Positions 13,906 to 35,558 of a DNA stretch of 64,000 nucleotides are shown here, in pieces. Under the pieces are notes generated by a model, which had not been told where the DNA came from, searched no databases, and saw only the letters and a list, made by a program, of their open reading frames with translations. A program made the translations under genes and the position numbers. Numbering within the stretch: the first letter of the stretch is position 1; each line of letters begins with the position of its first letter. This DNA is from Minisyncoccota bacterium (GTDB lineage: Bacteria > Patescibacteriota > Minisyncoccia > Phycocordibacterales > UBA6065), in NCBI GenBank assembly GCA_035546035.1, contig DASZXC010000008.1:188265-252264 (forward strand). Direction: 5' to 3'.

Positions 13906-13926
13906 CTCGGGATAGAGCTATGACTG

Positions 13927-15401: not shown

Positions 15402-15412
15402 AAGAAACTGGT

Positions 15413-16729: not shown

Positions 16730-16731
16730 AA

Positions 16732-17798: not shown

Positions 17799-17822
17799 TG
17801 AGGGTGTTTAACCAGACCCTCA
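17799..17822 (-). repeat. conserved 3' stem-loop motif, copy 3 (TGAGGGT-ctggttaaac-ACCCTCA; stem covaries, loop is conserved)
   Basis: Overlaps the stop of 17820..18488(-). Followed by a second hairpin GGGGAATCcttaaacaaGATTCCCC (17770-17794). Confidence 0.5.
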
Positions 17823-18488
17823 GTTAACTGGTGAACGGAAGACGAACTTCACCCACTTGAGCTCCGTTTTTAGGCGGTGGCTCTCGAAGTGGAGATGATC
17901 GGCAGTGAGACAGCAGGCGTAGCTCTTGTTCGGTGCATCGCCCTCAGAGCACACGGTCCAATACTCTCCCTCCTTGAGCTCTTCCTCTGGACGACATTCC
18001 GCACCCTTCTTCATATGCTCAGCGAGGCTGATCATATGAGAATAATGCGGGAGTCGCAGGAAGCTCGAGCTCGCGGCGATCTCTACAGCTTCGAACCAAG
18101 TCATTTTCATGGGCTCGGTCGGAAGCCACTGTTCACCCGGCTGAAGGCCGAGGTTCTTGTAGTAGAGCCTGTGCTTGACGATGATGTCCATCACCAGTTT
18201 CTGCGCATCAGTCCAACTGATGAAGAATCCTTCGCTTCGCACCGGCTCCGTGAGGAGCATCGCCTTGTCTCCGAGCGCAAGCCTGACTTTCGCGAGAAAG
18301 TCGCCTTGCGTCGCCTGCTTGAGGAGAGCGCTCGTCCAATCATTGCGACGGAGCGCCATCTCGAGTTCATGTCCCTGGCCTTGGCCCAATACGAACGTGT
18401 CATTCATGACGTGTTTTCCTGGTTTTGCAACGATGTACTTGCGTACGGTGTTGCGTTTTGCCTCTGGCCAACCGACGTGGTTTGCCAT
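17820..18488 (-). CDS. hypothetical protein
   Basis: 222-aa ORF. Its stop lies inside a conserved stem-loop motif. Confidence 0.4.
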   Translation of the reverse strand: MANHVGWPEAKRNTVRKYIVAKPGKHVMNDTFVLGQGQGHELEMALRRNDWTSALLKQATQGDFLAKVRLALGDKAMLLTEPVRSEGFFISWTDAQKLVMDIIVKHRLYYKNLGLQPGEQWLPTEPMKMTWFEAVEIAASSSFLRLPHYSHMISLAEHMKKGAECRPEEELKEGEYWTVCSEGDAPNKSYACCLTADHLHFESHRLKTELKWVKFVFRSPVN

Positions 18489-19678: not shown

Positions 19679-21205
19679 CTAAAGGAAATATATCCTCGGA
19701 AGCACGGGTGCGTGCTCGGTGACGCTCTGGACGAGGATGGAGAAAGCGTCGACGAGATCGTCGTGCTTCTCGACCCCAAAGTGAACGATCTGCTGAATCA
19801 GTTCCTCCGCGCCCTCCTTGGGAAAGAGTATCTTTCCTGTCTTGATGAGATTCGCCGTGAGGGCAAGCCTTGATCTCTTGTCTTGGTTTCCTGGCCTTGT
19901 CGGAATGACGTTATGGAGACCCTCTTCCTTGAGCTGTTGTGGCAGAGCTTTCTGATATGCAACGTCTTCCACGATGAAGGTTGGCCTCTCATCGCTTGCC
20001 TTGGTATATGCCACGTCGAGAGCCTTGCAGAGGTCGACAGTCTCGGGGAAATTGAGTCTTCGATTGATGATTTTAGGTAGGATATAGATGCGATAGCCGC
20101 TATAGAGCTCGTAGAGCATGCCGGGAACCATGGCGGTGTAGTCGGCGGCGTCGCTTTTCGATATGGCAAGGTCGACACCGATACGGACTTCCATGTGGGT
20201 CATATACCCGCCGAAGCCCTTCTCGGGAGGCGGAATTACGTCATAGTATTGGATCCATTCGCGATGTATCGCTTGTTCTTCGTCAGCGACGATACGGAGA
20301 AGGTATTCGCGTTCCCATGCGAACTCGTTTCCGGCCTTTTTCTTTTCATCCTCTATATCCTCAAGAGACGCATACTTTCCAGGCCAGAGAATCTTCTCAT
20401 TTTGAATCAAGGGATATTCGCGAAACGTACCCGTGAGCTTTCCACGGCCTATGTCTTCTTTCATCCTCATCAAAAGCGAATCCTCGTGGAGGAGGTTTCC
20501 GACGATGACAAGCCTCGTATCGCGATCTCCTGCGGGGATGACCTCGGCCGTGAGCCACTGATATGTCTTGCTTCGGCCTTCGCGGGTTTTGGTCGAGGCG
20601 AGATCCTCTATGTCGTCGCAGACGATTAGATCGGGGCGGTGCTGATTGTGACGGAGGCCACGAATCGATTGCTCGGTCGATACGGCCGTGATGCGGGCAT
20701 CGAGTTGCGAGAATACCAAGGACGACGATCCCCATTGATCTGACTCTTCTTGAAATGGCCCAAGGTCATTCTTGAGGATGGTATTGTTTTCAAGTTCACG
20801 TCGAAGGTTCATCATATGCTGCTTGGCCTGGCTCTGGGTCTGACAGGCGATAAGCACAAATCTTTTTGACTGCTCGCCGAGAATGGCCCACAGAGGATAC
20901 GAGGTCGTGAGGATGGTCGACTTGCCGCATCCTCGAAAAGCCACGATGAAGAGATTGCTGTTATCGCTTTTCTCGGTGAGCCTGAATATCTCCTCATGAA
21001 AAGGAGCCGTCCTGTATTTGACGTAGTGGGAGAGGTAGAAATGGAAGAAGTAATGGTGACTCTTCCTAGTGATTGCCGTCCTCACTTTTCTGTCCTTGAG
21101 CATCGCCTCCACCAATTGGGGCGGCATCGCTCTTTTCGGTTGTATCGTTTGGTTTTCCATTGTCGTTAATGTCGACCGCGACCGCTGTCTCTGTCTCGAC
21201 CTCAC
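19679..21205 (-). CDS. phage terminase large subunit
   Basis: Walker A VAFRGCGKSTILT, Walker B LIVCDDIEDL, and a C-terminal RNaseH-like nuclease region. The true start is probably an internal Met (MENQ at about 21160), because the track ORF overlaps the small-subunit gene. Confidence 0.75.
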   Translation of the reverse strand: MRSRQRQRSRSTLTTMENQTIQPKRAMPPQLVEAMLKDRKVRTAITRKSHHYFFHFYLSHYVKYRTAPFHEEIFRLTEKSDNSNLFIVAFRGCGKSTILTTSYPLWAILGEQSKRFVLIACQTQSQAKQHMMNLRRELENNTILKNDLGPFQEESDQWGSSSLVFSQLDARITAVSTEQSIRGLRHNQHRPDLIVCDDIEDLASTKTREGRSKTYQWLTAEVIPAGDRDTRLVIVGNLLHEDSLLMRMKEDIGRGKLTGTFREYPLIQNEKILWPGKYASLEDIEDEKKKAGNEFAWEREYLLRIVADEEQAIHREWIQYYDVIPPPEKGFGGYMTHMEVRIGVDLAISKSDAADYTAMVPGMLYELYSGYRIYILPKIINRRLNFPETVDLCKALDVAYTKASDERPTFIVEDVAYQKALPQQLKEEGLHNVIPTRPGNQDKRSRLALTANLIKTGKILFPKEGAEELIQQIVHFGVEKHDDLVDAFSILVQSVTEHAPVLPRIYFL

Positions 21206-21572
21206 CCGAAGCCAAGCGTAGAGCCTCTCGGACGAGGGCTTCTTGTTCGGGAGTGAGCTCTTCCTGGCGAGTAACGGCGGTTACTTCGAGCTTGTTTTTG
21301 TATTCAGGATGGTGGTGACGGAGCCACTGCATGATGGCCGTCATGTTCTTGTCCTTGATGGCCGATATGAGCTGGCTTTCGGCCAGGTCGTTCACCATGA
21401 GCTTGCCTTCGGCGAGGGCTTCAAGAGCGAGCTTCTCGAATTCCTTGTCCTCTTTGAGCCAGCGGTAGTAGGTCATGCGGGAAACGCCCGTCTTTTCGCA
21501 GGCGATTTGGATCACGGGCGTTTTTCTGAATTGCTCAAGCAATATCTCTTTGTTTTTGTCGGTCTTGTTCAT
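21066..21572 (-). CDS. terminase small subunit-like HTH DNA-binding protein
   Basis: HTH PVIQIACEKTGVSRMTYYRWLKEDKEF. It sits directly upstream of the large terminase. There is a paralog at 31884..32603. Confidence 0.5.
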   Translation of the reverse strand: MNKTDKNKEILLEQFRKTPVIQIACEKTGVSRMTYYRWLKEDKEFEKLALEALAEGKLMVNDLAESQLISAIKDKNMTAIMQWLRHHHPEYKNKLEVTAVTRQEELTPEQEALVREALRLASGEVETETAVAVDINDNGKPNDTTEKSDAAPIGGGDAQGQKSEDGNH

Positions 21573-22342
21573 ATTTTTTCTGCTTTAAGGCTCGTCACAT
21601 GCTCCCACCGTGCGATGATTGTTCTGCAATACTCCAAATCCTCTTCGACCATGAAGCATCTGCGCTTCGTTTGCTCACAAGCAATCAAAGTCGTACCCGA
21701 TCCGCCAAATGGGTCGTATACGGCATCGCCAATCGAGGTTGAATTCATGATGAGGTGGGCCACGAGAGGCACTGGTTTCATCGTTGGATGGAGCGAACTG
21801 CTATTGGGCTTTGGATAGCAGAGGATGGATTTGTCCTTGCTTCGCCTGAACGCATGAGTGCCGTACCAACCGAAAAGAATAAGCTCGTGTTGAGGCATGT
21901 AGTCCTTGCGGCCGATGACCGCTTGGCTTTTGACCCAGATCACGAGCTGGGAGAAGAAGATGCCGACATCATCGAGAGCGTTTCGTAGAGTGAAGAGCAT
22001 TTTGTCCGAGTTGAATATGTATATGCTGTTCTTTCGGGCGAGACGAGGTATGACGGGCAGAAGCCACTTCTTCGAGAATTCTCGGTACTCGCTCTCCGAT
22101 GAGATATTGTCATTGAGGATTACTTTGTTTACTTTCGGCGTGCCGACGTTCGTCTTGTTCTCCGCATACGAGACGCCATATGGCGGATCGGTCACGATGG
22201 CCTGGATATTTGCACTCGAAAGGAAGCTCGTGACAAGCTTTTCGTCGCAGGCGTTGCCGCACAAAAGGCGGTGGTCGCCAAGCTTCCAGACTTGGCCCTG
22301 TTTAACTGATCTTTCGTGCTTTATTTCCAGTGAGTTTTTCAT
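21569..22342 (-). CDS. DNA N6-adenine/N4-cytosine methyltransferase (DPPY type)
   Basis: Motif IVTDPPYGVSY and a C-terminal AdoMet-binding region DPFGGSGTTLIACE. Confidence 0.8.
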   Translation of the reverse strand: MKNSLEIKHERSVKQGQVWKLGDHRLLCGNACDEKLVTSFLSSANIQAIVTDPPYGVSYAENKTNVGTPKVNKVILNDNISSESEYREFSKKWLLPVIPRLARKNSIYIFNSDKMLFTLRNALDDVGIFFSQLVIWVKSQAVIGRKDYMPQHELILFGWYGTHAFRRSKDKSILCYPKPNSSSLHPTMKPVPLVAHLIMNSTSIGDAVYDPFGGSGTTLIACEQTKRRCFMVEEDLEYCRTIIARWEHVTSLKAEKI

Positions 22343-23576
22343 AACGGCGGATTATTAAATCAACGAATATCGGCTCGCGTTCGACCAAGTATGCTTTGCG
22401 CTTCAGCTGTTCGCAGGCGATGAGAAGGCTCCCTGAACCACCGAAGAGGTCAAGAACAACATCACCGGCTTTTGAGCACCTCCGGAGGGCTTTCTCATGC
22501 AGGGTCGGAGGCTTTTCCGTGGGGTGCTCATAGTCGGCCCCGCTTATGCGCTTGGCGAGCCAAATGTCGATCATGTCGAAGATATCGTCTATGGTGCGAT
22601 TGCCCGTGCCGACTTCCTTGTTCATGATCTCCGAGAGGTTGAGCACTTTTTCGGAGATATATGGCTTGCCGATAGTTCCATACACGCACGGTTCATACTG
22701 CTTGTTGAATGCGATCTGAGGAGTCGGCGTCGAGTTGTTTTTCACCCAGAGACACACTCGCTTGTTCGCTATGCCAAGCTCTTGATACAGGGTTTGCAAG
22801 AGCCAGATGTACCGTTGGTCGCAGTATGTGAAGATGTGAGCGTTGGGCTTCGTGTGGGCGAGAGCGTTTCCGAGAGCAGATTTTAGAAACTTTTTGTACT
22901 CGACATCCGATTTTGAATCATCAACGTTGCCACCATACGATTTCTTGCCACCCATACCTTTGTCGTATGAGAGGCCGATGTTGTATGGAGGGTCGGTATC
23001 GATTACATCGACCTTGGTCGTGCTGAGGAGCTTTTTCAGGGTCTTTGGGTCACAGCTATCGGCACAGATGAGGCGATGCTCGCCGAGGGCGTATATATCA
23101 CCGAGTTTCGCTTTCGGTTTCTTGATCTTTTCAAGCTCCTTATCAATGTCAAAGTCATCGTTCTCGATCGAGAGGTCGTCAAAAAGATGGGTGAGATCGG
23201 TGTCGTCAAAGCCGCTCGACAGGAGCGTACCTATGTCGAAGTCGGCGGCGAGTTTCTCCCAGTCCCAATCGCCGTGGACGCGGTTCGATGTGAGGAGATA
23301 CTGGTCATATTCGCTTTTCGTGAGCTTCCTATTTGGCACGCGTACCTCGATTTTCTCATCGCCACGGCCGAGAAGCTTCAAAACCATGAGCCTCTGATGG
23401 CCTGCTATGACCTTGCCATCCGTGTCGATAACGGGGATCTCGACCACGTTAAACTTTGTGAGGCTCTTTTTGAGGTCATCTACCTGCTTTTCGCTCATCA
23501 TTCTCGGGTTCTTGTTATTTGGGACAAGCTCCGAGATTGTGTGGCTCTCGGTATGCCAAATTAATTTGTTTTTCAT
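22302..23576 (-). CDS. ParB-like nuclease domain fused to a DNA methyltransferase
   Basis: N-terminal ParB/Srx motif VIAGHQRLMVLKLLG, then VIDTDPPYNIGLSY and a C-terminal DLFGGSGSLLIACE. Confidence 0.75.
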   Translation of the reverse strand: MKNKLIWHTESHTISELVPNNKNPRMMSEKQVDDLKKSLTKFNVVEIPVIDTDGKVIAGHQRLMVLKLLGRGDEKIEVRVPNRKLTKSEYDQYLLTSNRVHGDWDWEKLAADFDIGTLLSSGFDDTDLTHLFDDLSIENDDFDIDKELEKIKKPKAKLGDIYALGEHRLICADSCDPKTLKKLLSTTKVDVIDTDPPYNIGLSYDKGMGGKKSYGGNVDDSKSDVEYKKFLKSALGNALAHTKPNAHIFTYCDQRYIWLLQTLYQELGIANKRVCLWVKNNSTPTPQIAFNKQYEPCVYGTIGKPYISEKVLNLSEIMNKEVGTGNRTIDDIFDMIDIWLAKRISGADYEHPTEKPPTLHEKALRRCSKAGDVVLDLFGGSGSLLIACEQLKRKAYLVEREPIFVDLIIRRYEKLTGNKARKIS

Positions 23577-23724
23577 ATATTTCGAGATGCCTTTAGCGGC
23601 TTTCTCATAGATATATGGTCATTAATGACACTCAACATTTTTTCTTGTGGTGATGACAGAAAAAACGCCTTATTCAAGGCGACTTTTGGTGTCGATAAAA
23701 AATGAGTTAGCTCACTAGCTCCGA

Positions 23725-24498
23725 TTAAATGACGTTTTCGTCGTCGAATGGGTGTTTATCGGCTTCTGAAATCAGGGAGAACTTGGGATAGTAGCCCTCG
23801 CTCTTGCGGTAAGGGTGGAAGGGATTCTCTGCTATGCCGAGGAAAGTCTTGAGCCGTTCTGAAGTTTCGTATTTCACATTGCGGCTATATCTCGCATCGA
23901 ACTGAGATACAGGTAGACTGCCTCCGTTATCGGCTATGGCTCGGAGAAACTCCCATTTCGTATCCGGATTCTGAGTCTTTCGATCAAGGAACCCGACATC
24001 TTTATAGTCGAACTTAATAGTAGGCATGCCCGGATATTTCATCTTGACCGTATGTCCGTCGACGAACTTAATTTTGAGGCGTTCAAGCTTCGCTCCATTG
24101 GGCAAAGGATATGCCGCACGATTACGATTCTCCTTCGTCGTCCGCAGAAGGCCTGCGATGTCTTCCGCGAGGGCCTTTCGATCATCGGGATGAAGTCGTA
24201 CGCTGACATTGTCGTTACGCATGACGATCGTATTTTGGCGAAAGACTACGGTATCGAATTTCGGCACGGCGAACGCTTTTGAAATATCCTGTACCATGGC
24301 TTGAATGCGCTGGATATTTTCTAGATACGGTCCCATCGTCTTACGGACGTTTTCTATGGTTTCGAGCACAGGAGCCATCGACTCGATGATAGGGGTTATG
24401 GATTCAAGCGCACTTTCTCTTTGTATAGCAAAGCGTTCGAGGCTTTCTCGGGCGTCTTTAATGACGGATAGCTCCATGTGAGGGAATTGCTCTGACAT
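23725..24498 (-). CDS. hypothetical protein (divergent from the LexA-like/CBASS operon)
   Basis: 257-aa ORF with no recognisable motif. Confidence 0.4.
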   Translation of the reverse strand: MSEQFPHMELSVIKDARESLERFAIQRESALESITPIIESMAPVLETIENVRKTMGPYLENIQRIQAMVQDISKAFAVPKFDTVVFRQNTIVMRNDNVSVRLHPDDRKALAEDIAGLLRTTKENRNRAAYPLPNGAKLERLKIKFVDGHTVKMKYPGMPTIKFDYKDVGFLDRKTQNPDTKWEFLRAIADNGGSLPVSQFDARYSRNVKYETSERLKTFLGIAENPFHPYRKSEGYYPKFSLISEADKHPFDDENVI

Positions 24499-24539
24499 GG
24501 CCCTATTATAGCCCTATTTGCAAAAAAGGCCACTTTGGT

Positions 24540-24555
24540 GTATACTTGTTTATAC
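24540..24555 (+). promoter_or_regulatory. candidate operator palindrome GTATA-N6-TATAC overlapping the RBS region of the LexA-like gene
   Basis: Inverted repeat GTATActtgttTATAC, 3 nt upstream of the ATG at 24558. Confidence 0.3.
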
Positions 24556-24557
24556 CT

Positions 24558-25193
24558 ATGCTTCAATATCTAAGCGACAAGGATAAAGAGGTCTATGTGC
24601 TCGTCCGTAACAGGATAGTCCACGGCCTTAAGACTCCCACTCTCGAAGAGATAAACAAAGTGACAGGTAAGTCGTCCCCACGATCGGCGGTTCTTGCGCT
24701 CGAAAGGCTCGAAAAGGCCGGTCTTCTGAGGAGGATGGGAGGAAAAATCCGACTTATGAGTCAGAGCTTAACTCCAAACGCTTCCATCTCTACCATTGAG
24801 GTACCGCTTGTCGGCACGATTGCCGCAGGTGCTCCGATCCTCGCAGAAGAGAATGTCGAAGCGATGATTCCCGTATCGACCGCTATAGCGAAACCTGGCT
24901 CGAAGTACTTCTTGCTTCGCGTCACGGGCACGTCGATGAACATGGCGAAAGTGAATGGGGTCAAAATCGACGAAGGTAGCATCGTCTTGGTCAGGCGACA
25001 GGAGACTGCGGATGATGGGGACATTGTAGTGGCGCTTATCGACGACAGCGCGACAGTCAAGGTCCTCGAACGAAAGAATGGCATGGTCATTCTTCGCCCA
25101 AAGTCTTCCGACCCGCACAAGCCGATCATATTAACAAATAATTGTATCGTTCAGGGGGTGGTAGTCGGAGTATTGCCGTCTGATCTCTATTAA
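24558..25193 (+). CDS. LexA-like repressor (winged HTH plus S24 self-cleaving peptidase domain)
   Basis: N-terminal wHTH (LEEINKVTGKSSPRSAVLALERLEKAGLL), Ala-Gly cleavage site VGTIAAGAPI, catalytic Ser in GTSMNMA and Lys in ATVKVL. The track ORF starts at TTG 24546. Confidence 0.75.
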   Translation: MLQYLSDKDKEVYVLVRNRIVHGLKTPTLEEINKVTGKSSPRSAVLALERLEKAGLLRRMGGKIRLMSQSLTPNASISTIEVPLVGTIAAGAPILAEENVEAMIPVSTAIAKPGSKYFLLRVTGTSMNMAKVNGVKIDEGSIVLVRRQETADDGDIVVALIDDSATVKVLERKNGMVILRPKSSDPHKPIILTNNCIVQGVVVGVLPSDLY

Positions 25194-25211
25194 CAGCTAT
25201 GAAAAATAACT

Positions 25212-26339
25212 ATGCCTGAACGCCCAAGCATACCCGATCAGGTAAAGCTCAAGCTCTGGGCGCTTTCTGGTGCGCGTTGCGAGTTCCCGGGCTGTAACAA
25301 GTATGTCTGGCGAGACGGCCTTACCCTCAAAGACGATAATTTCGCTCACATGGCTCATATCATTGCGGCGAACCCTGGCGGTCCCCGTGGCGATGAGGTC
25401 GCTTCTCCAGAGTTAGCTACCGACTATGACAACCTTATGCTCCTATGCTTTGATCACTCGAAGCTCGTAGACGGCAAAAACAAATGCGATTACACCATCG
25501 AGTATCTGCGAGAATACAAACGATCTCATGAGGACAGAATTCGCCGTCAGACAGAGCTGTCGCCAGAGATGACGACCACGGTCTTGAGATTCTCAGCGAA
25601 TATCGGTGATCGTCCTGTGGAGGTTTCCACAAAACAAGCTTATCAGGCGATACTGCCACGTTATCCCGCAGATGACCGCGGCATAGCCCTCGATTTCACT
25701 AACCGCCCAGGCCGAGGCAAGGCGGACTTTTGGACGTCTTTCGCGTCGGAGATAAGCGAACGAGTCGAGAAAGAGCTAAGGGCGGGCAACGACCGTTCTC
25801 GGCCAAGTCATATCTCCGTATTCGCACTTGGTCCTATTCCTCTGCTTGTCCACTTGGGCAATGCCATAGGTAATACCATCTCCGCCGATCTGTATCAGCG
25901 ACACCGCGATACTGAGAACTGGACATGGAAGAATGAGGCTCAAGATGATCTCGCCTATGAGGTCAAGGAAACGAAAGGAGAAACTGGAGGCGATATAGCC
26001 GTGGTCTTGTCCCTGAGCGGTAAGATCCATTACGATGAGGTGTATAAGCTCTTTGCTAAAAAACCTCATCTCTATGAGATAACCATTGCCACTCCTGCGC
26101 CTGGCTTCCTTGCCTCAAGACCGAAGCTCGAAAAGTTTCGATTGGCCTATCGTGAGCTTCTCACCAAAATCAGGACTCTTCACGGCGGAGGAACAGTAAT
26201 TCATCTCTTTCCGGCTATTCCCGCGCCGATTGCGGTCGTCTGCGGACGAGAGATACTGCCGAAGTCAGACCCGAAAATGACGGTCTACGATCACGAAAAC
26301 GCTCAAGGTGGATTTATTCCGATTCTAACAATTAATTAA
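25212..26339 (+). CDS. HNH endonuclease fused to a SAVED-like sensor domain (Cap5-like CBASS effector)
   Basis: N-terminal HNH (CEFPGCNKY...AHMAHII...LLCFDHSK) followed by a C-terminal domain of about 280 aa. This architecture and its adjacency to a CD-NTase match Cap5. The SAVED call is by architecture and context, not by explicit alignment. Confidence 0.55.
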   Translation: MPERPSIPDQVKLKLWALSGARCEFPGCNKYVWRDGLTLKDDNFAHMAHIIAANPGGPRGDEVASPELATDYDNLMLLCFDHSKLVDGKNKCDYTIEYLREYKRSHEDRIRRQTELSPEMTTTVLRFSANIGDRPVEVSTKQAYQAILPRYPADDRGIALDFTNRPGRGKADFWTSFASEISERVEKELRAGNDRSRPSHISVFALGPIPLLVHLGNAIGNTISADLYQRHRDTENWTWKNEAQDDLAYEVKETKGETGGDIAVVLSLSGKIHYDEVYKLFAKKPHLYEITIATPAPGFLASRPKLEKFRLAYRELLTKIRTLHGGGTVIHLFPAIPAPIAVVCGREILPKSDPKMTVYDHENAQGGFIPILTIN

Positions 26340-26340
26340 C

Positions 26341-27234
26341 ATGGATATACAAAAATTTCTTAACAGCCTGCTTGCCTCGCAAGATCTGCTCATCGAGCAG
26401 GAAAACTCGCTTCAGACGCACAAAAAAGAGGTGACCGATTTCCTTGTCGCTGAATTTGGCAATAAGCCCAAGATCAAATACGCGGGGTCCCGAGAGAAAG
26501 GCACAATGATCCGCGACAGCTACGACCTCGACATCGTGTGCTACTTCCCGAGCACCGATACACGAAGTCTCAAGGAAATCCGTCAGGAGGTGTCGGATCA
26601 TTTGAGCCAACGCTACGTCATGCAGGACAAGGCATCAGCTGAGAGGATAACCAATCTCAAAGGTGCTAAGACGCCTGAGAGCTATCACATAGACGTTGTG
26701 CCGGGCCGATTCATAGAGGGTAGCAACGATGTATTCATCCATGTCGCCTATGGAGACAAGGAGCGCATGCAGACGAATCTCAAGACGCATATCGACCATA
26801 TTGCCAAGAGCGGATGCGTGCCAGTAATCAGGCTCGTAAAACTCTGGAGTGTCCGAAATAACGTATCAATCAAGACCTTCATTCTCGAGCTCTTCGTTGT
26901 CGAGGTACTCAAAGGTAGTCAGAACAAGGGCGATCTTCGTAGCGGCTTCATCAAAGTCATGGAAGCTCTCCGAGATAATTTTGGATCAATGCAACTTGTT
27001 GATCCTGCAAACTCGAACAACGTCGTTTCAAGGACGATAGATTCATCCCAGCGTGTCATGGTTTCTCACGTCGCGGATGAGACACTCTCTAAAATAGAGG
27101 ATTCCACTAATCTCTCTGATTGGAGGGCGGTATTTCATGAGGAAAATGATCGAGGTACTACCGCTTCACGCTCATATACTCCAGATGCTGGCCCGACTAT
27201 CATCAACAATCCTTCAAAACCATGGGCGTGGTAG
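26341..27234 (+). CDS. cGAS/DncV-like nucleotidyltransferase (CD-NTase / SMODS)
   Basis: Pol-beta NTase signature GSREKGTMIRDSYDLDIV (GS-x10-DxD), a third acidic residue in HIDVVP, and a helical C-terminal domain. The start codon lies 2 nt after the Cap5-like stop. Confidence 0.6.
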   Translation: MDIQKFLNSLLASQDLLIEQENSLQTHKKEVTDFLVAEFGNKPKIKYAGSREKGTMIRDSYDLDIVCYFPSTDTRSLKEIRQEVSDHLSQRYVMQDKASAERITNLKGAKTPESYHIDVVPGRFIEGSNDVFIHVAYGDKERMQTNLKTHIDHIAKSGCVPVIRLVKLWSVRNNVSIKTFILELFVVEVLKGSQNKGDLRSGFIKVMEALRDNFGSMQLVDPANSNNVVSRTIDSSQRVMVSHVADETLSKIEDSTNLSDWRAVFHEENDRGTTASRSYTPDAGPTIINNPSKPWAW

Positions 27235-27950
27235 ACGGTAGTGTGACGCGGTACGTTTTCACACCAGAAGAGATAGCAGAAATCGGGCAAAGGTATGGCC
27301 TTGAGCTCATCACACCAAGTGTTTGGAAAGGAACGCTCAACATCTATGCCTCGTATAACGGCCTGCCGCTGAAGGATAAGTTCGAGATAAAAATCGGGAT
27401 ACCTTTTAACTATCCGAATTCGACTCCAGTTATGTCGGAAGTGGGAGGCCGTACTGCGACCATAATTAAAAAGTATAAGATCAAGGATCCGCGCGATCTC
27501 CACTTCAACATCGGTAGCGAGACGGCCTGTCTCTGTGTGCGCCAAGAGGAAAAGAAAAAGTTTCCGCCAGGCTCGTCACTATCGGTCTTCATAGAGAATC
27601 TCGTGATTCCGTATCTTTACGGCCTGAGTCATTTCGATATGTATCGAAAATGGCCATGGGGAGAAAGGTCGCATGGTGTCCTCGGCATGCTTGAGTTTTA
27701 TGGAGAAAATCCCGACAAACAGACAGAGGAAAGTATGAGGGAAATTACCGCCGCTTTACGACCAGAGAAAAATTGGAAGGAATACGATAAACAGCTACGA
27801 AATCCTCGTCCGCATGGTCGGTGTGTTTGTGGTAAAGATAAATCATTTGAGAAATGTCATTTCGCGGCTTTTCAGGGTGTAGTCTGCTTCAACGAAGACC
27901 TCAAACGTCTAGGCATCACCACCGCAAAACTGTTTCAGTCACGACCCTAA
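27222..27950 (+). CDS. E2 ubiquitin-conjugating-enzyme-like protein (type II-short CBASS Cap2-like, E2 only)
   Basis: UBC-like HPN-type motif HFNIGSETACLCV with a candidate catalytic Cys. Overlaps the CD-NTase gene by 13 nt. Confidence 0.45.
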   Translation: MGVVDGSVTRYVFTPEEIAEIGQRYGLELITPSVWKGTLNIYASYNGLPLKDKFEIKIGIPFNYPNSTPVMSEVGGRTATIIKKYKIKDPRDLHFNIGSETACLCVRQEEKKKFPPGSSLSVFIENLVIPYLYGLSHFDMYRKWPWGERSHGVLGMLEFYGENPDKQTEESMREITAALRPEKNWKEYDKQLRNPRPHGRCVCGKDKSFEKCHFAAFQGVVCFNEDLKRLGITTAKLFQSRP

Positions 27951-28273
27951 CTGCGTTTCGCAATATCTTTCCCAAGCGGCCCCTCGACGAGCTCCTCAAC
28001 CGTTTTCACAAGATCGCTCCACGGCATGATCCCTCGGTACCACATGAGCAGATTGTCCGTCCTGTAGTGGAGTAGGTGCATGAACTTGGCCCACGTGAAG
28101 CCTTGCGCTTTGAGTTTGTCTTTCCACGAGTCCCAAAAGTACTTGGGCATCTGATTCATATGCCACACGACCATCGATTCCCAGTTAACGCCTGGATCCG
28201 CGCCTAATGAAGCGTGAACGGCTTTCATCTGCTGTTTGATGGCCTTGGGTTCGGGGAGGGTAGCTAGTTTCAT
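27947..28273 (-). CDS. hypothetical protein
   Basis: 108-aa Trp-rich ORF converging on the CBASS operon. Confidence 0.3.
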   Translation of the reverse strand: MKLATLPEPKAIKQQMKAVHASLGADPGVNWESMVVWHMNQMPKYFWDSWKDKLKAQGFTWAKFMHLLHYRTDNLLMWYRGIMPWSDLVKTVEELVEGPLGKDIAKRS

Positions 28274-28543
28274 ACCCCTAATATATACCCTATGATAAAG
28301 CTGTCAACAGAGCCAATGTTACAGTCCAAAAAGGCCTTTATGCTGTAACATTTGTAACATTCCTGTGAATGAGACATGATCCGAACTAGCCCTTTCCGTG
28401 TCTCATTTGTCTCATTCACAAAATTCGACCCCGACCCACGTACCTCATTTCCGCCTGCCGAAAAATGCTATTATGCCCTTACGGGGTCTTACCTCATGGG
28501 TACTTAACCCGACTACACCGCATAGTGAATAAGGTATCGGACA

Positions 28544-28559
28544 AACCCACGTACCTAAA
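28544..28559 (+). repeat. 16-bp direct repeat AACCCACGTACCTAAA (left copy; right copy at 35374..35389)
   Basis: Exact 16-bp match. The two copies bracket the second serine-recombinase module. Confidence 0.5.
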
Positions 28560-28570
28560 ATTAGGCAAAC

Positions 28571-28596
28571 AAAAAATCCCAAATATGGGATTTTTT
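28571..28596. terminator. bidirectional terminator AAAAAATCCCAaataTGGGATTTTTT
   Basis: Stem flanked by an A-run and a T-run, immediately after the stop of recombinase 2. Confidence 0.55.
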
Positions 28597-28597
28597 G

Positions 28598-29923
28598 TTA
28601 CTGAGCGAGAGCCAGGGTTTTGTCTTTGTAAATTATTCTCGACTTCAAGCTACCCAATAATTCTCGTTTCTCTATAATCGAACCCTCTTTCAGAATATAT
28701 TTTGCATAATTTTTAATATCAGTCTCGGTATTATTTTTGACTTTATCTTGGCTTCCTAAGACCGATCTTTGGAAGATGTTGAATCGGCTGATTTCTTCCT
28801 CGAGTTTTCGTCTCATACCAAGTTCGTTTATATCAAGAAGATCTATTATCTTCAGGAGCCCGGAAATTAGCTCCTCCTCTCGTATATAAGTATTCTTGCA
28901 ATTGCGATCTCGCGCTCTGCTGCAACCATAGTAGACATAGCGATGAGAACCGCCATTTTTACGCTCCTTCCATTTCTCTTCGGCAGACACTCCTGAACCG
29001 CAATGACCGCAGCTGAATAATTTTGTGAAAGCGAACTCTTTGTTTTCACGGACAATCTTATCTCTGGTCAGCTGAGCCTGCGCTTTATCGAAGAGCTCTT
29101 TTGATATCAGGGGAGCGTGTTTGCCCGTATACCAATTGCCGCTGTTCTTCGGACGCTCGAAGACTCCGTAATAGAAAGGGTTGTCGAGTGTGCGATAGAT
29201 GCCGCTCAGGGTGAACGGCTTGTTGCCTCGGGTGTGGAAGTTTAATTCAAATTTCAGCCAGTTGTAGAGCTTCATCCCGCTCCAGTTTTCATACGCGACT
29301 TTTTCGAACATCTGTTTGATGATTGGCGCTCTGATCGGATCAGGTACAACCTGACACTTTTTATCCATCATGTACTGGTTGAGATATCCGAGGGGAGCTA
29401 AGCCTGCCCATAATCCCATCTCCGCTCGAGTTCTGAGTCCGCGCTTCACATTCAGACCTCGATTATCGTTCTCAAGCTTTGCCTGTGATCCCAAGATCAT
29501 GAGGAGGAATTTGTCACTCGGACTATTCGTGAATCGTTGCCCGAACGTTTGGATTTCTTTGAGTTTTCCTGAATCGAGGAGATCGACAACCTTTCCCAGG
29601 TCTCCTGCGTTCCTCGAGATTCGATCTGGAGCCCATGTCAGGATGCTGTTGAATTTCCCTTTACCGATATCATCGATAATCTCATTGAAGATCGGCCGTT
29701 GACCTGTCTCTTTGGCGGAATGCGACTCACGCTTTATTTCTACGACTTCGAGATTATCGCGCGAGGCGAGCTCCAGCATCTCTTTAATCTGCGAATCTAT
29801 GGAAAGCACCTGTCTTTCCTCGGATTCGGTGCTTTTACGCGCGTAAAGGCAGTATTTTGCCTTTATAGGGGCTTGTAAGGGCTTGATAATGACTCCGGCT
29901 GGGGCTTGGGCTATATTGCTCAT
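28598..29923 (-). CDS. large serine recombinase (second copy)
   Basis: YCLYARKSTESEERQVLSIDSQ and a zinc ribbon CGHCGSG...YYGCSRARDRNCKN. About 75% aa identity to 9711..11042. Confidence 0.85.
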   Translation of the reverse strand: MSNIAQAPAGVIIKPLQAPIKAKYCLYARKSTESEERQVLSIDSQIKEMLELASRDNLEVVEIKRESHSAKETGQRPIFNEIIDDIGKGKFNSILTWAPDRISRNAGDLGKVVDLLDSGKLKEIQTFGQRFTNSPSDKFLLMILGSQAKLENDNRGLNVKRGLRTRAEMGLWAGLAPLGYLNQYMMDKKCQVVPDPIRAPIIKQMFEKVAYENWSGMKLYNWLKFELNFHTRGNKPFTLSGIYRTLDNPFYYGVFERPKNSGNWYTGKHAPLISKELFDKAQAQLTRDKIVRENKEFAFTKLFSCGHCGSGVSAEEKWKERKNGGSHRYVYYGCSRARDRNCKNTYIREEELISGLLKIIDLLDINELGMRRKLEEEISRFNIFQRSVLGSQDKVKNNTETDIKNYAKYILKEGSIIEKRELLGSLKSRIIYKDKTLALAQ

Positions 29924-30156
29924 ATAGCAATCAATGCCGCATCCCGCCCAAAGAGGCTAGTTGGTAACTAATTCCGAGAGATGTTTAATCTTTTGTTAAG
30001 ATTGCTACGCAAAAACATGAAAGAAGAGTGGTATACAAATCATATAAAACAGATCAGGGTAATCGCGGACGCTCGTTATACTCCTGAGTTAAACGTAGAT
30101 CTTCCAATCTCTGATAGATATTCAACAGGGTTACAGAGATTGGTTACGACCCAAAA

Positions 30157-31257
30157 TTGCATGGTGAATTCGATTCCAATGTAAATTATTACGATAGAAG
30201 TGGTAGATCGGAACATAAGGCAGAGAGAATAGGTAAAAAATATCAGTGGATCGCCTATCATGAGTTTATGGCGCTTGTGTCTGACCATTTTGAGTTCAGT
30301 GGCAGACGCTGGGGAGCAACCTCTGAACACTACAAAGGTCCGTGGACGCCTCGGATAAGAGATATTGATCCTTCTTTCATCATGCAAAATGATCGAACTA
30401 ATCAGAAAGTTGCAACGTTTGAAAATTGGAAGAGCAAATCTGGCAAGTACAATGCTTGGAATTTGTCACTAGACGACAAAAGTTGGTTGGAGGTAAAAGA
30501 TGATCTACTCGATCCTAAAAATATAATAGAAATCGCAGATGATGCGGGTAATAAGTGGCTAACTCTACAAGGAATATTCGTTTGGCAGGCAGAAACTGCT
30601 CCGGAGCATAAAAAATACGATATACCGACGCGAGAGGTCTTCTATATCCTCAAAAGTTTCATTATCAGAAAAAGTGACTATGAAAAAACACTATCCTGGC
30701 TTAATGCCAAGGGCTTCGGCAACTGGTTGCCAGAGTCTCACCAGTTCTACGAGACATTTATTGGTGAATACCCTAATTCTTTTGCCTTCGATGATTTAAG
30801 AGGCGACTATAATATTTGGAGGAAAGCAAATGATAAGCTTGATGTACCGCTCGTCGTTACTGACGATGCTTATCTAAATGAATTCACGCTCGACTGTTCG
30901 CATGAAGGGGCTGTATCTGTAAGAATGCCCTCAAAGTTTATAGTAAATGAGATGCAATTGGTGCAGAAAAATCTCGACGGTATTTTTTCTGACAAAGATA
31001 ATAAGATCATTTCCTATACGACTAACGTTTTCAAGGAATCTTTTCCGTCTGCGCTTCTAATAGATAAAAAGGCGCTCTTAAAGTTTCTTGATGATGCCGG
31101 ATACAAAATATTTTGGACGCTTCTCGGAGAAAAACAGATAATAGGAGGATCGTTAGCGGGAAGAGATTTCAAAGGGAGGTTAGATATTACGGGTACGTAT
31201 GGTTTTCCTGACGACTCCAAATTAAAAGGATCAATGGATACTAGATTTACCTCTTAA
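30157..31257 (+). CDS. hypothetical protein encoded in a low-GC segment (possibly the frameshifted C-terminal part of a larger gene)
   Basis: 366-aa ORF. A 67-aa ORF (29981..30184) overlaps its 5' end in another frame. GC is visibly lower than the surroundings. Confidence 0.35.
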   Translation: MHGEFDSNVNYYDRSGRSEHKAERIGKKYQWIAYHEFMALVSDHFEFSGRRWGATSEHYKGPWTPRIRDIDPSFIMQNDRTNQKVATFENWKSKSGKYNAWNLSLDDKSWLEVKDDLLDPKNIIEIADDAGNKWLTLQGIFVWQAETAPEHKKYDIPTREVFYILKSFIIRKSDYEKTLSWLNAKGFGNWLPESHQFYETFIGEYPNSFAFDDLRGDYNIWRKANDKLDVPLVVTDDAYLNEFTLDCSHEGAVSVRMPSKFIVNEMQLVQKNLDGIFSDKDNKIISYTTNVFKESFPSALLIDKKALLKFLDDAGYKIFWTLLGEKQIIGGSLAGRDFKGRLDITGTYGFPDDSKLKGSMDTRFTS

Positions 31258-31388
31258 ACACTAAGTCTTTGGAGGTATTACACAATCTTTTGTATCTAAG
31301 CTAAGGTACTGACTGGTATCTCTTTTTGGGATATCATGTAGTTACAACTGAATAAAAAAGTAGCCTAAACCCTCGAGAAATCGGCGGC

Positions 31389-31946
31389 ATGGCGAAGGAA
31401 ATCCGATTAAGTATAAAAAGGCCCCCATCAGGGCTACTTAATCGGTCATATCAGGAAACTGGTATGGATAGCCTTCGGGCTATCACCTGGTGTGGGGCTT
31501 TTTGTATTCAAAGAGCCTTCCGGGATTACCAGTTAGCAGGCTCTTATATGTTTTTCTTTATTTGGTTAGGGTTGTCTATGTTGGTGGGCGCGTATGCGAG
31601 CAACAGAAAAACTGCGGGAGGATTCTTCCTTGGATTTTTTGTCTCCATGGTTTTTTCTCCTCTTGTTGGTTTTGTGGCGGTAGCAGTCTCTAAGCCTAGT
31701 CAGAGCAGGGTCGAGGCGGGAATGAAGAAATGTATCCATTGCGCCGAGCTTGTTAAGAAGGAGGCGATCAAGTGCAGGTACTGCGGGGCGGATCTTCCAG
31801 TTCAAGAGGAATCTAAGGAGATTGTTGAACCTAAGACAGAGAAGAGTCCGGAGGAGAAGAAATCAGATAGAATCGCGGCCATTTCAGTGACGGGGTTTAT
31901 ACTGGTTCTTATTCTCATCTTCTATCTTCTGACGAAGTTCCGCTAG
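31389..31946 (+). CDS. hypothetical membrane protein with a zinc-ribbon (CxxC...CxxC)
   Basis: TM helices plus CIHCAELVKKEAIKCRYCG, and a C-terminal TM anchor. Confidence 0.35.
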   Translation: MAKEIRLSIKRPPSGLLNRSYQETGMDSLRAITWCGAFCIQRAFRDYQLAGSYMFFFIWLGLSMLVGAYASNRKTAGGFFLGFFVSMVFSPLVGFVAVAVSKPSQSRVEAGMKKCIHCAELVKKEAIKCRYCGADLPVQEESKEIVEPKTEKSPEEKKSDRIAAISVTGFILVLILIFYLLTKFR

Positions 31947-32603
31947 CTTGGCGTCTCGGTAGGGTTTGCTCGCAATGAGTTCTTGAAGATCCTTCTCTCG
32001 CTGTTCCATAAGAGCCTTCTGGATATTCAGTGAGAGGGTGTTTATATCTACATGACCTTGCATTGCATTGTGGAAGTCGAGCTTCTCTAGTAATTCTTTC
32101 TCACGAGGTGTTGTCCCATAGTCATTCGGCATGTATTTCTGCATGAACCATCGGGTTATCATCTTGTCGCCCTCGATCAGAAAGTTACGTACGTTCTCGG
32201 TTGCTATCGTAGTGGTTTCTTTTGCGGGATCTACTGTTTGATGGGGTTTTACTTCTTTCGCCTTCATATATCTTGGGTCGTTATGACTGAGCCAGAACGA
32301 TATGGCGGGCATCTTTCTCTCTCGGATAAGGGAGATGATTTGCGACTCGCACATATCGTTCATGAAGCGTCGGCTGTATTCGCCAGCCTCATCTGCCATC
32401 TTCTTGAACCTCTTGTCGGAGTGATACCAACGGTAAAAGGTCGCACGGGATATACCCGCTTTCTTGCACGCGACCTCTATTACGGGTGTCTCGCGGAGCT
32501 TCTCGAGAAGGAAAGTCTTCTCTTTTCTCTGGCGAGCCGCGATAGAGGCTCTGCGATGCTTTATTGAATCTTCGTGGCCTTGAGTCCCGTTAGATTCTCC
32601 CAT
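31884..32603 (-). CDS. terminase small subunit-like HTH protein (paralog of 21066..21572)
   Basis: HTH PVIEVACKKAGISRATFYRWYHSDKRF. Confidence 0.45.
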   Translation of the reverse strand: MGESNGTQGHEDSIKHRRASIAARQRKEKTFLLEKLRETPVIEVACKKAGISRATFYRWYHSDKRFKKMADEAGEYSRRFMNDMCESQIISLIRERKMPAISFWLSHNDPRYMKAKEVKPHQTVDPAKETTTIATENVRNFLIEGDKMITRWFMQKYMPNDYGTTPREKELLEKLDFHNAMQGHVDINTLSLNIQKALMEQREKDLQELIASKPYRDAKLAELRQKIEDENKNQYKPRH

Positions 32604-33895
32604 CGTTTTTTAATTACTTCTGCGTAGACGGGCGACTTTTCCATGAGGAAGCATCGGCGCTTGAGTCGTGTCGAGGCTATAAGCGTCGATCCGCTTCCTC
32701 CGAAGGGCTCGAGGACGAGCTGGCCACGCTTCGTGAGAACTTTGATGTACGGGATCAGTATCTCGACAGGCTTCGTGCCGAAGATGATGCTCTGGCCGGA
32801 CGATTTCTCGTCCGAAGCAACGCATTCGATGAAGTCGGTCGGGCAGTACTTGTTGCCTTTACCGTACGCCTCCCATTGAGGCTTGCCTTGGATGGCGAAG
32901 AGGGCGGTCTGATACTCGTTCTCGAGAAGCGAATCGTCCTCTGGCTCGAGATTGAGTCCAGAATGCTCCTCGCTCGTCCCGACCATGGCTATGTCGTGCT
33001 TGGAGAAGAACTTGAGCTTGCCCGCATAGCCCTGATTCCTGTTGGGGAGGTGCCAGACGAGCATGTTCCTGACCTTCCAATGCTTGGCTAGCTCGGACCA
33101 TATGACGGGAATGTTCTTCCAGTTCTCGTAGACGATGATCGAGAAGTTCTCGGCCTGTACTTTAGCGACGTTTCCCATCCAGAGCTCGGTGAAATCGTCG
33201 GGAATGGACTCGGTCTCGAGGTACCTACGGTTCTTCTTGGTTCCGAAGCCCGTTGTGGCCTCGCCGTTCTTTCCTTTGCCGTGCAGGTAGTCGAGGATGT
33301 ACGGTGGATCGGTCATGACCATGTCTATCTTCTCGTCTCCGCAGAGCTTCAGCATGTCGGCCTCGATAGTCGAGTCGCCGCACATAAGCTTTGAGCCGTC
33401 CAGATCGTAGACGTCGCCCTTCTTTATCTCGATGTTGTTTATATCGAGCTTCTCCAGCTCCTTCTGTAGGTCGAAGATCTCTTCTTTCTCGTCCTCACCG
33501 AAGATATTGTCGATCTCCTCTGACGAGAAGCCGACGTCTTGAAGGAAGATCTCGTCGAAATGCTCTTGAAGGAGTTCGAAGTCGAATTCGCCGACAGCTT
33601 TGTTCAAGCGGAGGGAGATCTCTCGCTCCTTGTCGAGATCGGTAATGTTAACGGAGACGACGGGGACGGTCTCAAAGCCCAGCTCCTTCATCATCTCCCA
33701 TTTGAATACGCCGCCAAGGATGACGTTCTCTCGGCTTGGGGCATTGTTGCAGAGCAGTGGATTGAGGCATCCGAACTTCCTCAGCGACTCCTTGAGCTGT
33801 TCGGCTACCTCGGTCGAATGCTTGCGGACGTAATACTCAGGCACTTTCAAGACGCTCGATGGAACATGGTCTACCTTCATGGTTTCTATAGACAT
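32561..33895 (-). CDS. ParB-like nuclease domain fused to a DNA methyltransferase (second copy)
   Basis: ParB-like N-terminus, then MVMTDPPYILDY and a C-terminal EPFGGSGSTLIAS. Confidence 0.75.
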   Translation of the reverse strand: MSIETMKVDHVPSSVLKVPEYYVRKHSTEVAEQLKESLRKFGCLNPLLCNNAPSRENVILGGVFKWEMMKELGFETVPVVSVNITDLDKEREISLRLNKAVGEFDFELLQEHFDEIFLQDVGFSSEEIDNIFGEDEKEEIFDLQKELEKLDINNIEIKKGDVYDLDGSKLMCGDSTIEADMLKLCGDEKIDMVMTDPPYILDYLHGKGKNGEATTGFGTKKNRRYLETESIPDDFTELWMGNVAKVQAENFSIIVYENWKNIPVIWSELAKHWKVRNMLVWHLPNRNQGYAGKLKFFSKHDIAMVGTSEEHSGLNLEPEDDSLLENEYQTALFAIQGKPQWEAYGKGNKYCPTDFIECVASDEKSSGQSIIFGTKPVEILIPYIKVLTKRGQLVLEPFGGSGSTLIASTRLKRRCFLMEKSPVYAEVIKKRWENLTGLKATKIQ

Positions 33896-34085
33896 ATTTT
33901 TACTGGCTTAACCGACGTGATAAGAGGTCATATGTGTTTGATGAATCCTTTTACAATTTAGGTGGTACAGCTAAGGTGAGACCCCTCTCGATTTCGGCGT
34001 ATGCGCATATGCCGATCCTTAACCTCGCATATTAAGTATAGCGGGGAGGGGTCGAATTTGTTCTTTCCCTCGGAAGGAGTAGAGT

Positions 34086-35388: not shown

Positions 35389-35389
35389 A
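35374..35389 (+). repeat. 16-bp direct repeat AACCCACGTACCTAAA (right copy)
   Basis: Identical to 28544..28559. Confidence 0.5.
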
Positions 35390-35558
35390 TTGCAGAGGCG
35401 AAATGGTGCTAAAATACCCTTACAACGGTTGGGCCTACATTTACTTAACCCGCCATCACCGCAACAAGGAAGATATCCGATGAGTCCCTCATGTCGAAAA
35501 TGGCATTCGCTGTAAAGAAAAAACACCGCGTAAGCGGTGTTTCGCCTTTAAAAAAGAC

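Follow-up and report, generated by a model that had tools for sequence, protein, structure and literature searches.

A LexA-type repressor gene heads a predicted E2-only CBASS operon on a putative small mobile element of Candidatus Paceibacterota

How abortive-infection systems stay quiet until they are needed is an open question, and the regulators described so far (CapW, CapH/CapP and CapK/CapS) all respond to DNA damage. A stretch of 64,000 nt from a Minisyncoccota genome (GenBank assembly GCA_035546035.1, contig DASZXC010000008.1, positions 188,265 to 252,264; hereafter the window) raises this question in a particular form. There, a gene for a LexA-type repressor stands directly upstream of genes for a Cap5 effector, a CD-NTase and an E2-only protein, i.e., the components of an antiphage signaling system that relies on cyclic oligonucleotides (CBASS). 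Does this repressor belong to the CBASS, to the host or to a mobile element carrying both? The reading that we favor, with a probability of roughly 0.6, is that the four genes form a LexA-headed CBASS operon, derepressed upon DNA damage and located on a small integrative element of phage origin in Paceibacterota, the repressor and its promoter acting as a generic front end.

The four genes correspond to co-directional open reading frames (ORFs) of the plus strand at 24546 (TTG) or 24558 (ATG) to 25193, 25212-26339, 26341-27234 and 27222-27950, where the first-pass annotation of the window had placed them. lexA and cap5 are 18 nt apart. The 13-nt overlap of the cyclase and E2 genes was correctly described in that annotation; the 2-nt overlap it assigned to cap5 and the cyclase gene is in fact a gap of 1 nt (26339/26341). 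The ORF list of the window includes no further gene in the operon beyond E2 and no E1 or JAB/Cap3 partner. lexA (24558-25193) encodes a 211-aa protein combining a winged helix-turn-helix (HTH) and an S24 self-cleaving domain according to Pfam and NCBIfam (Peptidase_S24, 4.9e-27; LexA_DNA_bind, 6.3e-06), and its score against the NCBIfam equivalog TIGR00498 (138.9 bits) exceeds the cut-off of 110.95. A TTG at 24546 is an alternative start; the ATG at 24558 is likelier, the 211-aa form being that of the NCBI annotation and of all close homologues. The Ala-Gly86 cleavage site (24810-24815), Ser126 (24933-24935) and Lys168 (25059-25061) are in place, and the cleavage-site Gly, the Ser and the Lys are invariant in an alignment of 20 cassette-linked repressors with E. 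coli LexA. The encoded proteins belong to a Candidatus Paceibacterota metagenome-assembled genome (MAG), which confirms the Patescibacteria-like host suspected earlier, and the LexA-type nature of the repressor proposed at the same time is borne out by these matches.

The three genes following lexA are recognizable CBASS components. Cap5 (25212-26339, 375 aa) consists of an HNH endonuclease and a SAVED cyclic-oligonucleotide sensor domain (about 25758-26333) and would be the effector. Its C-terminus, for which a sensor role had only been surmised, is a strong SAVED domain (Pfam, 5.3e-44), and the whole protein matches the PADLOC profile Effector/SAVED_HNH (5e-130) and aligns end to end with solved Cap5 structures (PDB 8ysq, 2.1e-68; 7rwk, 2.2e-58). 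The CD-NTase (26341-27234, 297 aa) matches the PADLOC cyclase profile PDLC00803 over its whole length (1e-67) and scores slightly below the Pfam SMODS cut-off (24.5 versus 26.5 bits). Its G49-S50 (26485-26490), D62/D64 (26524-26532) and D118 (26692-26694) are invariant in 38 cyclase homologues; these motifs had been spotted before, with a GS-x10-DxD spacing that should read GS-x11-DxD. The best PDB folds for its AlphaFold model (predicted local distance difference test score, pLDDT, 83) are CdnC, CdnD, CdnB and SmCdnG (template modelling, TM, scores of 0.62-0.70), and no antitoxin-type nucleotidyltransferase occurs among the listed fold matches. A profile search of the PDB ranked CdnC (1.1e-08) better than SmCdnG (7.9e-06), and the single sequence matched CdnC alone among PDB sequences (1.3e-04). 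Profile and fold thus both group the protein with CD-NTases, as annotated, rather than with MNT/antitoxin enzymes.

The E2-only protein (27222-27950, 242 aa) is UBC-like over its N-terminal ~135 residues; its C-terminal extension is helical and contains a zinc knuckle of the form C-x-C...C-H, similar to SEC-C (27822-27860). It matches the PADLOC E2 profiles (7.3e-33), and its model (pLDDT 92.5) folds like UFC1, UbcH7, Cdc34 and SmE2 (8hsb_B) over about 130 N-terminal residues; a sequence search of the PDB returned nothing significant. His94 (27501-27503) and the candidate catalytic Cys103 (27528-27530) are spaced as in the HPN...Cys motif of UBC enzymes. Residues H94, C103, C201, C203, C212 and H213 are invariant in the family, and the homologue of locus L026 (loci of our collection are designated by L and a number) has a weak SEC-C Pfam match. 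The UBC-like fold, the PADLOC match and the lack of an E1 or JAB gene in the operon uphold the E2-only assignment first proposed. Because the PADLOC profiles match strongly, the core is a member of a catalogued kind, and sequences and models support its classification as an E2-only (type II-short) CBASS.

To what extent is the repressor tied to this CBASS? Cyclase relatives were scanned in one genome per species, yielding 25 loci, and relatives of all window genes were then mapped. The order Cap5-cyclase-E2 was found in 24 of the 25 loci; effector-cyclase-E2 is consequently the norm of this CBASS clade and not the atypical arrangement that the first-pass annotation took it for. An S24 repressor gene adjoins cap5, across five phyla, in 15 of the 24 evaluable loci, i.e., those having sequence upstream of cap5 (14 directly upstream on the same strand and 1 divergent), so the neighborhood of the window is a conserved one. 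The hosts of these repressor-linked loci are Paceibacterota, Zambryskibacteria, Saccharibacteria, Hanamia/Chitinophagaceae/Bacteroidetes, Gemmatimonadales and Omnitrophota. A control set of about 85 loci encoding LexAs at 35-56% identity, obtained from a metagenome scan with the LexA protein alone that returned only one close relative, had no Cap5, cyclase or E2 gene nearby. Based on these neighborhoods, the adjacency of LexA and CBASS does not appear to be due to chance. The slot upstream of cap5 in L003 holds a small ORF and a Peptidase_M78 protein (27.3 bits, cut-off 22) reminiscent of CapH/CapP, the characterized DNA-damage-responsive CBASS regulators (bioRxiv 10.1101/2022.04.27.489752); a similar but weaker arrangement occupies the slot of L023, and CapH/CapP-like pairs of HTH and Peptidase_M78 proteins also precede TIR-E2 genes in L135 and L136. 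The pair found in L003 indicates that the slot accepts alternative regulators of the same logic.

Repressors and cargos do not follow the same history. The Cap5 proteins of the window and of L004 are 65% identical while their repressors share only 24% identity. Conversely, the repressor of L012, a locus of the candidate phyla radiation (CPR), is 64% identical to three Bacteroidota copies, and that of L002 (Paceibacterota) is 60% identical to that of L014 (Gemmatimonadales). Repressor and cargo consequently recombine independently. Bacteroidetes have been reported to lack a bona fide LexA and to possess HTH_3-type S24 regulators instead (PMC8565304); the cassette-borne Bacteroidota repressors have a LexA-type winged HTH.

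Close relatives of the window repressor lead to a mobile element. The nine independent loci of this LexA type (67-79% identity to the window repressor), the window and L013 included, all share one backbone upon neighborhood look-up: [serine recombinase], x, TerL, TerS, methylase(s)/ParB-methylase and a small ORF, followed by the divergent LexA gene. Besides the window and L013, this order adjoins LexA in L026, L028, L030, L117, L121 and L123, and partially in L119 (TerS and methylase, no TerL). In the window the backbone lies on the minus strand at 19679-24498 and comprises TerL (19679-21205), TerS (21066-21572), a DNA methylase (21569-22342), a ParB_N-methylase (22302-23576) and, immediately upstream of lexA, a 257-aa protein (23725-24498) of no assigned function, which matches no family and is not conserved in the other loci. 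lexA and these leftward genes diverge across a 59-bp intergenic region. Both terminase subunits match PHROGs families (large, 7.5e-79; small, 9.5e-10). A large serine recombinase of 441 aa with Resolvase, Recombinase and Zn_ribbon_recom domains (28598-29923, minus strand) is part of either this element or another one in tandem; a paralogue (9711-11042, minus strand) matches a PHROGs integrase (3.7e-62), and many loci have homologous recombinases beside the cassette. The terminase and recombinase genes confirm the phage-like setting assumed at first.

What follows lexA on this backbone varies, and the cargo begins 2-18 nt past the lexA stop codon in all nine loci. It consists of Cap5-cyclase-E2 in the window and in L013 (where a DUF2188 gene precedes cap5), of DUF2188, a different CD-NTase and Cap15 in L028, of ThsB-TIR and ThsA-Macro in L119, of TIR, a 200-aa protein and TIR in L121, of a PDC-M50-like small protein, TIR and E2 in L026, L030 and L117, and of DUF2188, a DUF8370/8371 protein and a 901-aa helicase in L123. 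Host genes come directly after the cargo and only beyond the backbone. In the non-CPR hosts no such backbone accompanies the repressor-CBASS cassette. Cassettes apart from the backbone lie next to recJ and a methylase gene in L016, next to an S1-domain gene in L002, and in surroundings resembling defense islands or integrative and conjugative elements in L004, L006 and L014. Two units are thus visible from these comparisons, namely a four-gene repressor-CBASS cassette and, in CPR bacteria, a small mobile element whose cargo slot is headed by a repressor. The window LexA is a backbone gene of such an element, with CBASS as one cargo among several. The initial view of LexA as a component of the operon, doing in one protein what CapH/CapP do in two, therefore stands as far as conserved linkage is concerned; LexA is not a dedicated CBASS partner in the lineage of the window.

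A sigma-70-type lexA promoter is predicted at 24518-24546 on the plus strand, with a -35 element TTGCAA (24518-24523), a 17-nt spacer and a -10 element TATACT (24541-24546), giving 9 of 12 consensus matches. Promoter-like sites in the region do not exceed the chance count, so that this call rests on conservation and position: the same layout is kept upstream of the LexA genes of L026 and L028 despite their different cargo. Overlapping the -10 element and ending 2 nt before the ATG is a perfect direct repeat, TATAC-N5-TATAC (24541-24555, plus strand), our candidate LexA operator. The repeat has a single zero-mismatch match in the whole window, at lexA. Among 30 loci scanned, it is present in six, with one copy each, representing four distinct elements (L013, L026/27, L028/29 and L030); these are exactly the loci whose LexA is 72-75% identical to that of the window, and the repeat always starts 17 nt before the ATG. 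In L028 both TATAC half-sites are kept and the spacer differs. The exact repeat was found neither at uvrA (L028) or recG (L030) nor elsewhere in the 30 loci. The first-pass annotation had proposed the palindrome GTATA-N6-TATAC at this place; the palindrome has a consistent mismatch in the relatives whereas the direct repeat is perfect in all, and the latter is the better reading. A secondary source (PMC7739468) cites Patescibacteria LexA among the LexAs that recognize direct repeats. Other repressor subfamilies have repeats of their own, which likewise overlap a -10 element and lie 7-10 nt upstream of the ATG.

With an ATG only 2 nt after the repeat, the lexA mRNA is predicted to be leaderless. 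The promoter scan found no convincing promoter before cap5, and a terminator-like hairpin at the end of lexA (25156-25181) was discarded, being no stabler than shuffled sequence (z = -0.02). We infer that lexA, cap5, the cyclase gene and the E2 gene would form one negatively autoregulated transcript under a putative operator. Six exact hits of the operator-plus-ATG string among viral contigs come with no encoded LexA and were dismissed as chance matches.

From these elements the following mechanism can be proposed. LexA would bind TATAC-N5-TATAC over its own -10 element and keep the leaderless lexA transcript, and the genes behind it, at a low basal level. Upon infection the CD-NTase would make a cyclic-oligonucleotide signal, which Cap5 would bind through its SAVED domain before cutting DNA through its HNH domain, leading to abortive infection. 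The E2 protein might act through Cys103 on the cyclase tail (...NPSKPWA-W), either priming or limiting the enzyme. RecA filaments on single-stranded DNA (ssDNA), arising from DNA damage or phage replication, would trigger LexA self-cleavage at Ala-Gly86, thereby derepressing the operon and raising CBASS levels, and the DNA breaks made by Cap5 could feed forward via RecA activation. The repressor gene and its promoter would be a generic front end, related elements carrying other defense systems in the same slot.

Several observations temper this proposal. The repressor is optional, since an adjacent S24 repressor gene is lacking in 9 of the CBASS clade's 24 evaluable loci, and in several loci a small gene, coding for DUF2188 or a ~72-aa basic protein, is inserted between repressor and cap5. 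Because repeat and -10 element have bases in common, part of the conservation of the repeat may reflect the promoter rather than an operator. A single negatively autoregulated promoter would also provide basal CBASS expression, making damage induction one of two possible emphases. Finally, PHROGs, which may cover CPR phages poorly, revealed no capsid, portal or tail family in 20 neighboring ORFs, and a complete prophage is consequently not established. In L030 the backbone stops at TerL and host genes come next, IMG/VR yielded no element of this type, and a protein scan of viral contigs returned only LexAs at 37-41% identity.

An alternative would be modeled on cI-rexA-rexB of phage lambda: LexA would chiefly be a maintenance repressor silencing the leftward terminase and methylase genes, its cleavage would serve induction of the element, and the CBASS genes would be a co-transcribed "moron" protecting the host constitutively. 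The S24 repressor gene is indeed divergent from the TerS, TerL and methylase genes across 59 bp, a serine recombinase lies nearby, and a constant backbone with varying cargo is what is seen at the defense hotspots of temperate phages and satellites. The lambda cI mRNA initiated at PRM is leaderless, as predicted here for lexA. Repressor types also differ on the same backbone in the manner of heteroimmune phages, ParB-methylases being 52-59% identical where LexAs are either 27-35% or 72% identical. Yet the repressor-Cap5-cyclase-E2 cassette is found without the terminase/methylase backbone, beside host or defense-island genes, in the five loci mentioned above (L016, L002, L004, L006 and L014), and the absence of virion genes from the window, of such elements from IMG/VR and of backbone genes beyond TerL in L030 also speaks against it. 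Moreover, a repeat over the repressor's own -10 element predicts autorepression and not the positive autoregulation typical of CI. We regard this alternative as rather unlikely, bearing in mind that it mostly overlaps with the damage-derepressed operon that we favor and differs from it mainly in emphasis. Two further explanations fare worse. The gene could be the housekeeping SOS LexA of the host, beside which defense genes accumulated by coincidence; this was suspected at first from homologues 70-79% identical, and it would fit the annotation as LexA above the equivalog threshold, the numerous relatives at 65-79% identity across CPR genomes and the direct repeat reported for Patescibacteria LexA, as cited in PMC7739468.

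Neighborhood analysis of the loci compared led us to regard a host housekeeping gene as improbable. All nine close relatives reside on one terminase/methylase/recombinase backbone, near-identical repressor types occur in different phyla, including Bacteroidota devoid of a bona fide LexA, and linkage within the CBASS clade (15 of 24) is to be compared with none in about 85 loci for other LexAs. The exact repeat, confined to lexA in the window and the 30 loci scanned and missing at uvrA and recG where these occur, and cargos starting 2-18 nt after the lexA stop codon also speak against coincidence, which is improbable; the window LexA appears not to be a vertically inherited host LexA. That the operon is a decayed remnant, intact in sequence and yet non-functional or unregulated amid dead mobile elements, is the least credible explanation and in our view very improbable. 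The surroundings are admittedly a mosaic, in which an IS256-type transposase and two serine recombinases occur together with another, partial backbone and a reverse transcriptase divided between two frames. All four ORFs are nevertheless full length relative to their homologues, none of the catalytic or diagnostic residues is lost, and promoter and repeat are conserved.

The CBASS operon has a further distinctive trait in the C-terminal tail of its cyclase. The last 30 residues of the enzyme form a low-confidence linker (pLDDT below 50 at residues 270-285) with a conserved end, [F/I]-x-P-x-x-[P/Q]-W-[A/C/G/S], of which the window version is GPTIINNPSKPWAW (27190-27231, plus strand). The same tail terminates E2-linked TIR proteins in L026 (locus span 7064-8364, ...TGPTVINNPSGPWAY), L030 (7434-8752, ...TGPTVINNPSGPWAQ), L135 (5383-6726, ...GPAVIRNPSKPWAR) and L136 (3486-4771, ...GPTIISNPSPPWAE), while that of L117 (6575-7895) ends with a ...GF-x-P-H-S-P-H variant also seen in some cyclases. 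A SMODS cyclase accompanied by this E2 in L131 (3815-5497) ends with ...GPTIIRNPSKPWAQ. The TIR proteins paired with the long zinc-knuckle E2 are ThsB-like. In the loci compared, the tail is absent from those TIR proteins and from the one cyclase not accompanied by an E2. Cyclases and TIR proteins share it only if this E2 comes next, which suggests that E2 recognizes the tail; the residues after its small residue would be removed or variable. The principle has a precedent, as Thoeris operons with Cap2/Cap3 and Gly-tailed TIR proteins have been reported (bioRxiv 10.64898/2025.12.03.692087). The E2-only version with a Pro-Trp-Ala tail was not found in the literature searched. The TIR+E2 cargos resemble these Thoeris operons in pairing a CBASS conjugation-type enzyme with a TIR synthase carrying a matching tail, and differ from them in having an E2-only protein with neither E1 domain nor JAB, and a Pro-Trp-Ala-x tail rather than the Gly-containing Cap2 tail.

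The closest characterized relative of the CBASS core is the SmCdnG-SmE2(-Cap5) E2-CBASS of Serratia marcescens (PMC12948482; PDB 8hsb, 8yjy), which likewise combines a CD-NTase with a stand-alone UBC-like E2 having a catalytic Cys, without E1 or JAB, and an HNH-SAVED Cap5. The window E2 model is similar to SmE2 (8hsb_B, TMt about 0.5) and the window cyclase to SmCdnG (TM 0.63). The Serratia cyclase is a long clade-G enzyme with an E2-binding motif made of a C-terminal helix and a three-stranded sheet and with a conserved terminal Gly, and its E2 is an 18-kDa protein (PMC12948482). The window cyclase, with 297 aa versus about 400, is in contrast no closer to CdnG than to CdnC, CdnD or CdnB; it lacks the helix/sheet motif, and its family lacks the terminal Gly (window tail ...NPSKPWAW). 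The window E2 is also longer (242 aa), with the helical extension and its SEC-C-like zinc knuckle, and the gene order effector-cyclase-E2 is another difference.

With CapH/CapP, CapW and CapK/CapS the window LexA shares a position directly upstream of an immune operon, an optional presence within a clade, an association with many unrelated defense systems and, as proposed here, derepression via repressor proteolysis. Unlike CapH/CapP, it unites DNA-binding and protease functions in one S24/LexA polypeptide, its trigger would be the activated RecA filament (RecA*) instead of ssDNA binding to a metallopeptidase, and its gene is the first of the operon on the same strand whereas capH and capP are usually divergent. 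Since the window encodes just one S24 protein and lacks an M78 gene, LexA is an analogue of the CapH/CapP module and not a member of it. Similarly, lambda cI-rexA-rexB and the P2/P4-like defense hotspots resemble the window element by an S24 repressor associated with abortive-infection genes, with co-transcription predicted here, and by a conserved backbone with varying cargo. The window differs from the lambda case by a repressor with a LexA-type winged HTH scoring above the LexA equivalog threshold, by its CPR host, by an element with terminase and methylase genes and no detectable virion genes, and by a cassette that also travels without the backbone.

No link of LexA or S24 regulators to CBASS was found in the literature, the search being limited to open-access text, and three features appear to be new variants: the conserved LexA-type front end, its equivalence to CapH/CapP and, in CPR bacteria, the element with swapped cargos. 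If our reading is true, a LexA heading CBASS, Thoeris-like and other operons ties immune expression directly to RecA and the SOS response through one protein. Beyond this, we tentatively propose a broader generalization, for which our confidence is somewhat lower. S24/LexA repressors may constitute a further class of single-protein DNA-damage switches beside CapW, CapH/CapP and CapK/CapS, interchangeable with CapH/CapP in one slot and disseminated among phyla together with their cassettes; such a repressor of CPR bacteria might provide a plug-in site, i.e., a leaderless autorepressed promoter, for swappable defense cargo on a minimal terminase/methylase element. The long zinc-knuckle E2 and the short ...NPSxPWA-x tail may in turn be a portable regulatory module for unrelated signal synthases, either CD-NTase or TIR. 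The locus documents CPR/Patescibacteria defense systems on a compact element with a recognizable cargo slot, which can be mined for new systems because several cargos and the genes of a second element have no annotation, and the tail common to cyclases and TIR proteins offers a handle on recognition by E2-only proteins.

Other proteins associated with the E2 or with the regulator slot were also encountered. In L131 (1285-3150, minus strand), as well as in L132-L134, a 621-aa protein joins the winged HTH of a LexA to an S24 peptidase and an N6/N4 DNA methylase. The L131 fusion gene is divergent from an operon coding for a 177-aa membrane-like protein, SMODS and E2, and adjoins the gene of an MvaI/BcnI restriction enzyme, which has an HTH controller. 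The E2 linked to it appears in 94 blocks of the collection, and it is unusual for a self-cleaving repressor to be fused to a methylase. A small DUF2188 gene is often present between LexA and the cargo, irrespective of cargo type, as in L013 (~8620-8870), L015 (8536-8811), L021 (~8590-8830), L028 (6647-6874), L117 (5899-6147) and L123 (7644-7886). A different, ~72-aa basic protein occupies this position in L009, L010 and L012; the window has neither. DUF2188 was listed as a putative Thoeris effector (bioRxiv 10.64898/2025.12.03.692087); its position suggests membership in the regulator module. In a Hanamia MAG, a second SMODS-domain gene (L004, 6591-7370, minus strand; 4.2e-09) is located just upstream of the repressor-CBASS cassette, beside a TraG/TrwB-like ATPase gene.

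Facing the operon, a 108-aa ORF (27947-28307, minus strand) converges on E2 and overlaps its stop by 4 nt; it has no family match and is not conserved in the other loci. It is preceded by the strongest promoter-like site of the region (TTGACA-16-TATATT, 11 of 12 matches), and in case of read-through its transcript would run antisense to the operon's 3' end. A second element follows in tandem at 28398-35988, with the serine recombinase gene cited above (28598-29923), a TerS-like gene (31884-32603) and a ParB-methylase gene (32561-33895). Its divergent ORFs of 149, 288 and 165 aa match neither Pfam nor PADLOC, the one compared with PHROGs (34522-35388) had no match there, and they may represent an unannotated regulator and its cargo. 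The repeats 28427-28482/35368-35423 and 28398-28419/34118-34139 may mark the ends of this element. Further upstream, a tRNA-Ser gene (3861-3950) is followed by genes for a GNAT-domain protein (4006-5091) and a Shedu SduA_C protein (5098-6294), and by an IS256/Mutator-family transposase gene (7480-8613), altogether spanning 3861-8613. The G+C content, about 0.55 at first, is down to 0.46-0.52 from roughly 4 to 36 kb and then rises to 0.58.

A diversity-generating retroelement was identified at 12434-15199 on the minus strand. Its reverse transcriptase is split in two frames (12873-13529 and 12434-12871), and this frame break may render the enzyme inactive. The template repeat (13924-14041) and the variable repeat (14399-14516), the latter at the 3' end of ORF 14393-15199, differ at 18 positions, 17 of which correspond to template adenines. 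Finally, a 31-nt element containing the inverted repeat GAGAGT...ACTCTC occurs in three copies (15380-15410, 16708-16738 and 17800-17830) between minus-strand genes of no assigned function, in the vicinity of an HTH regulator-like ORF (16241-16621).

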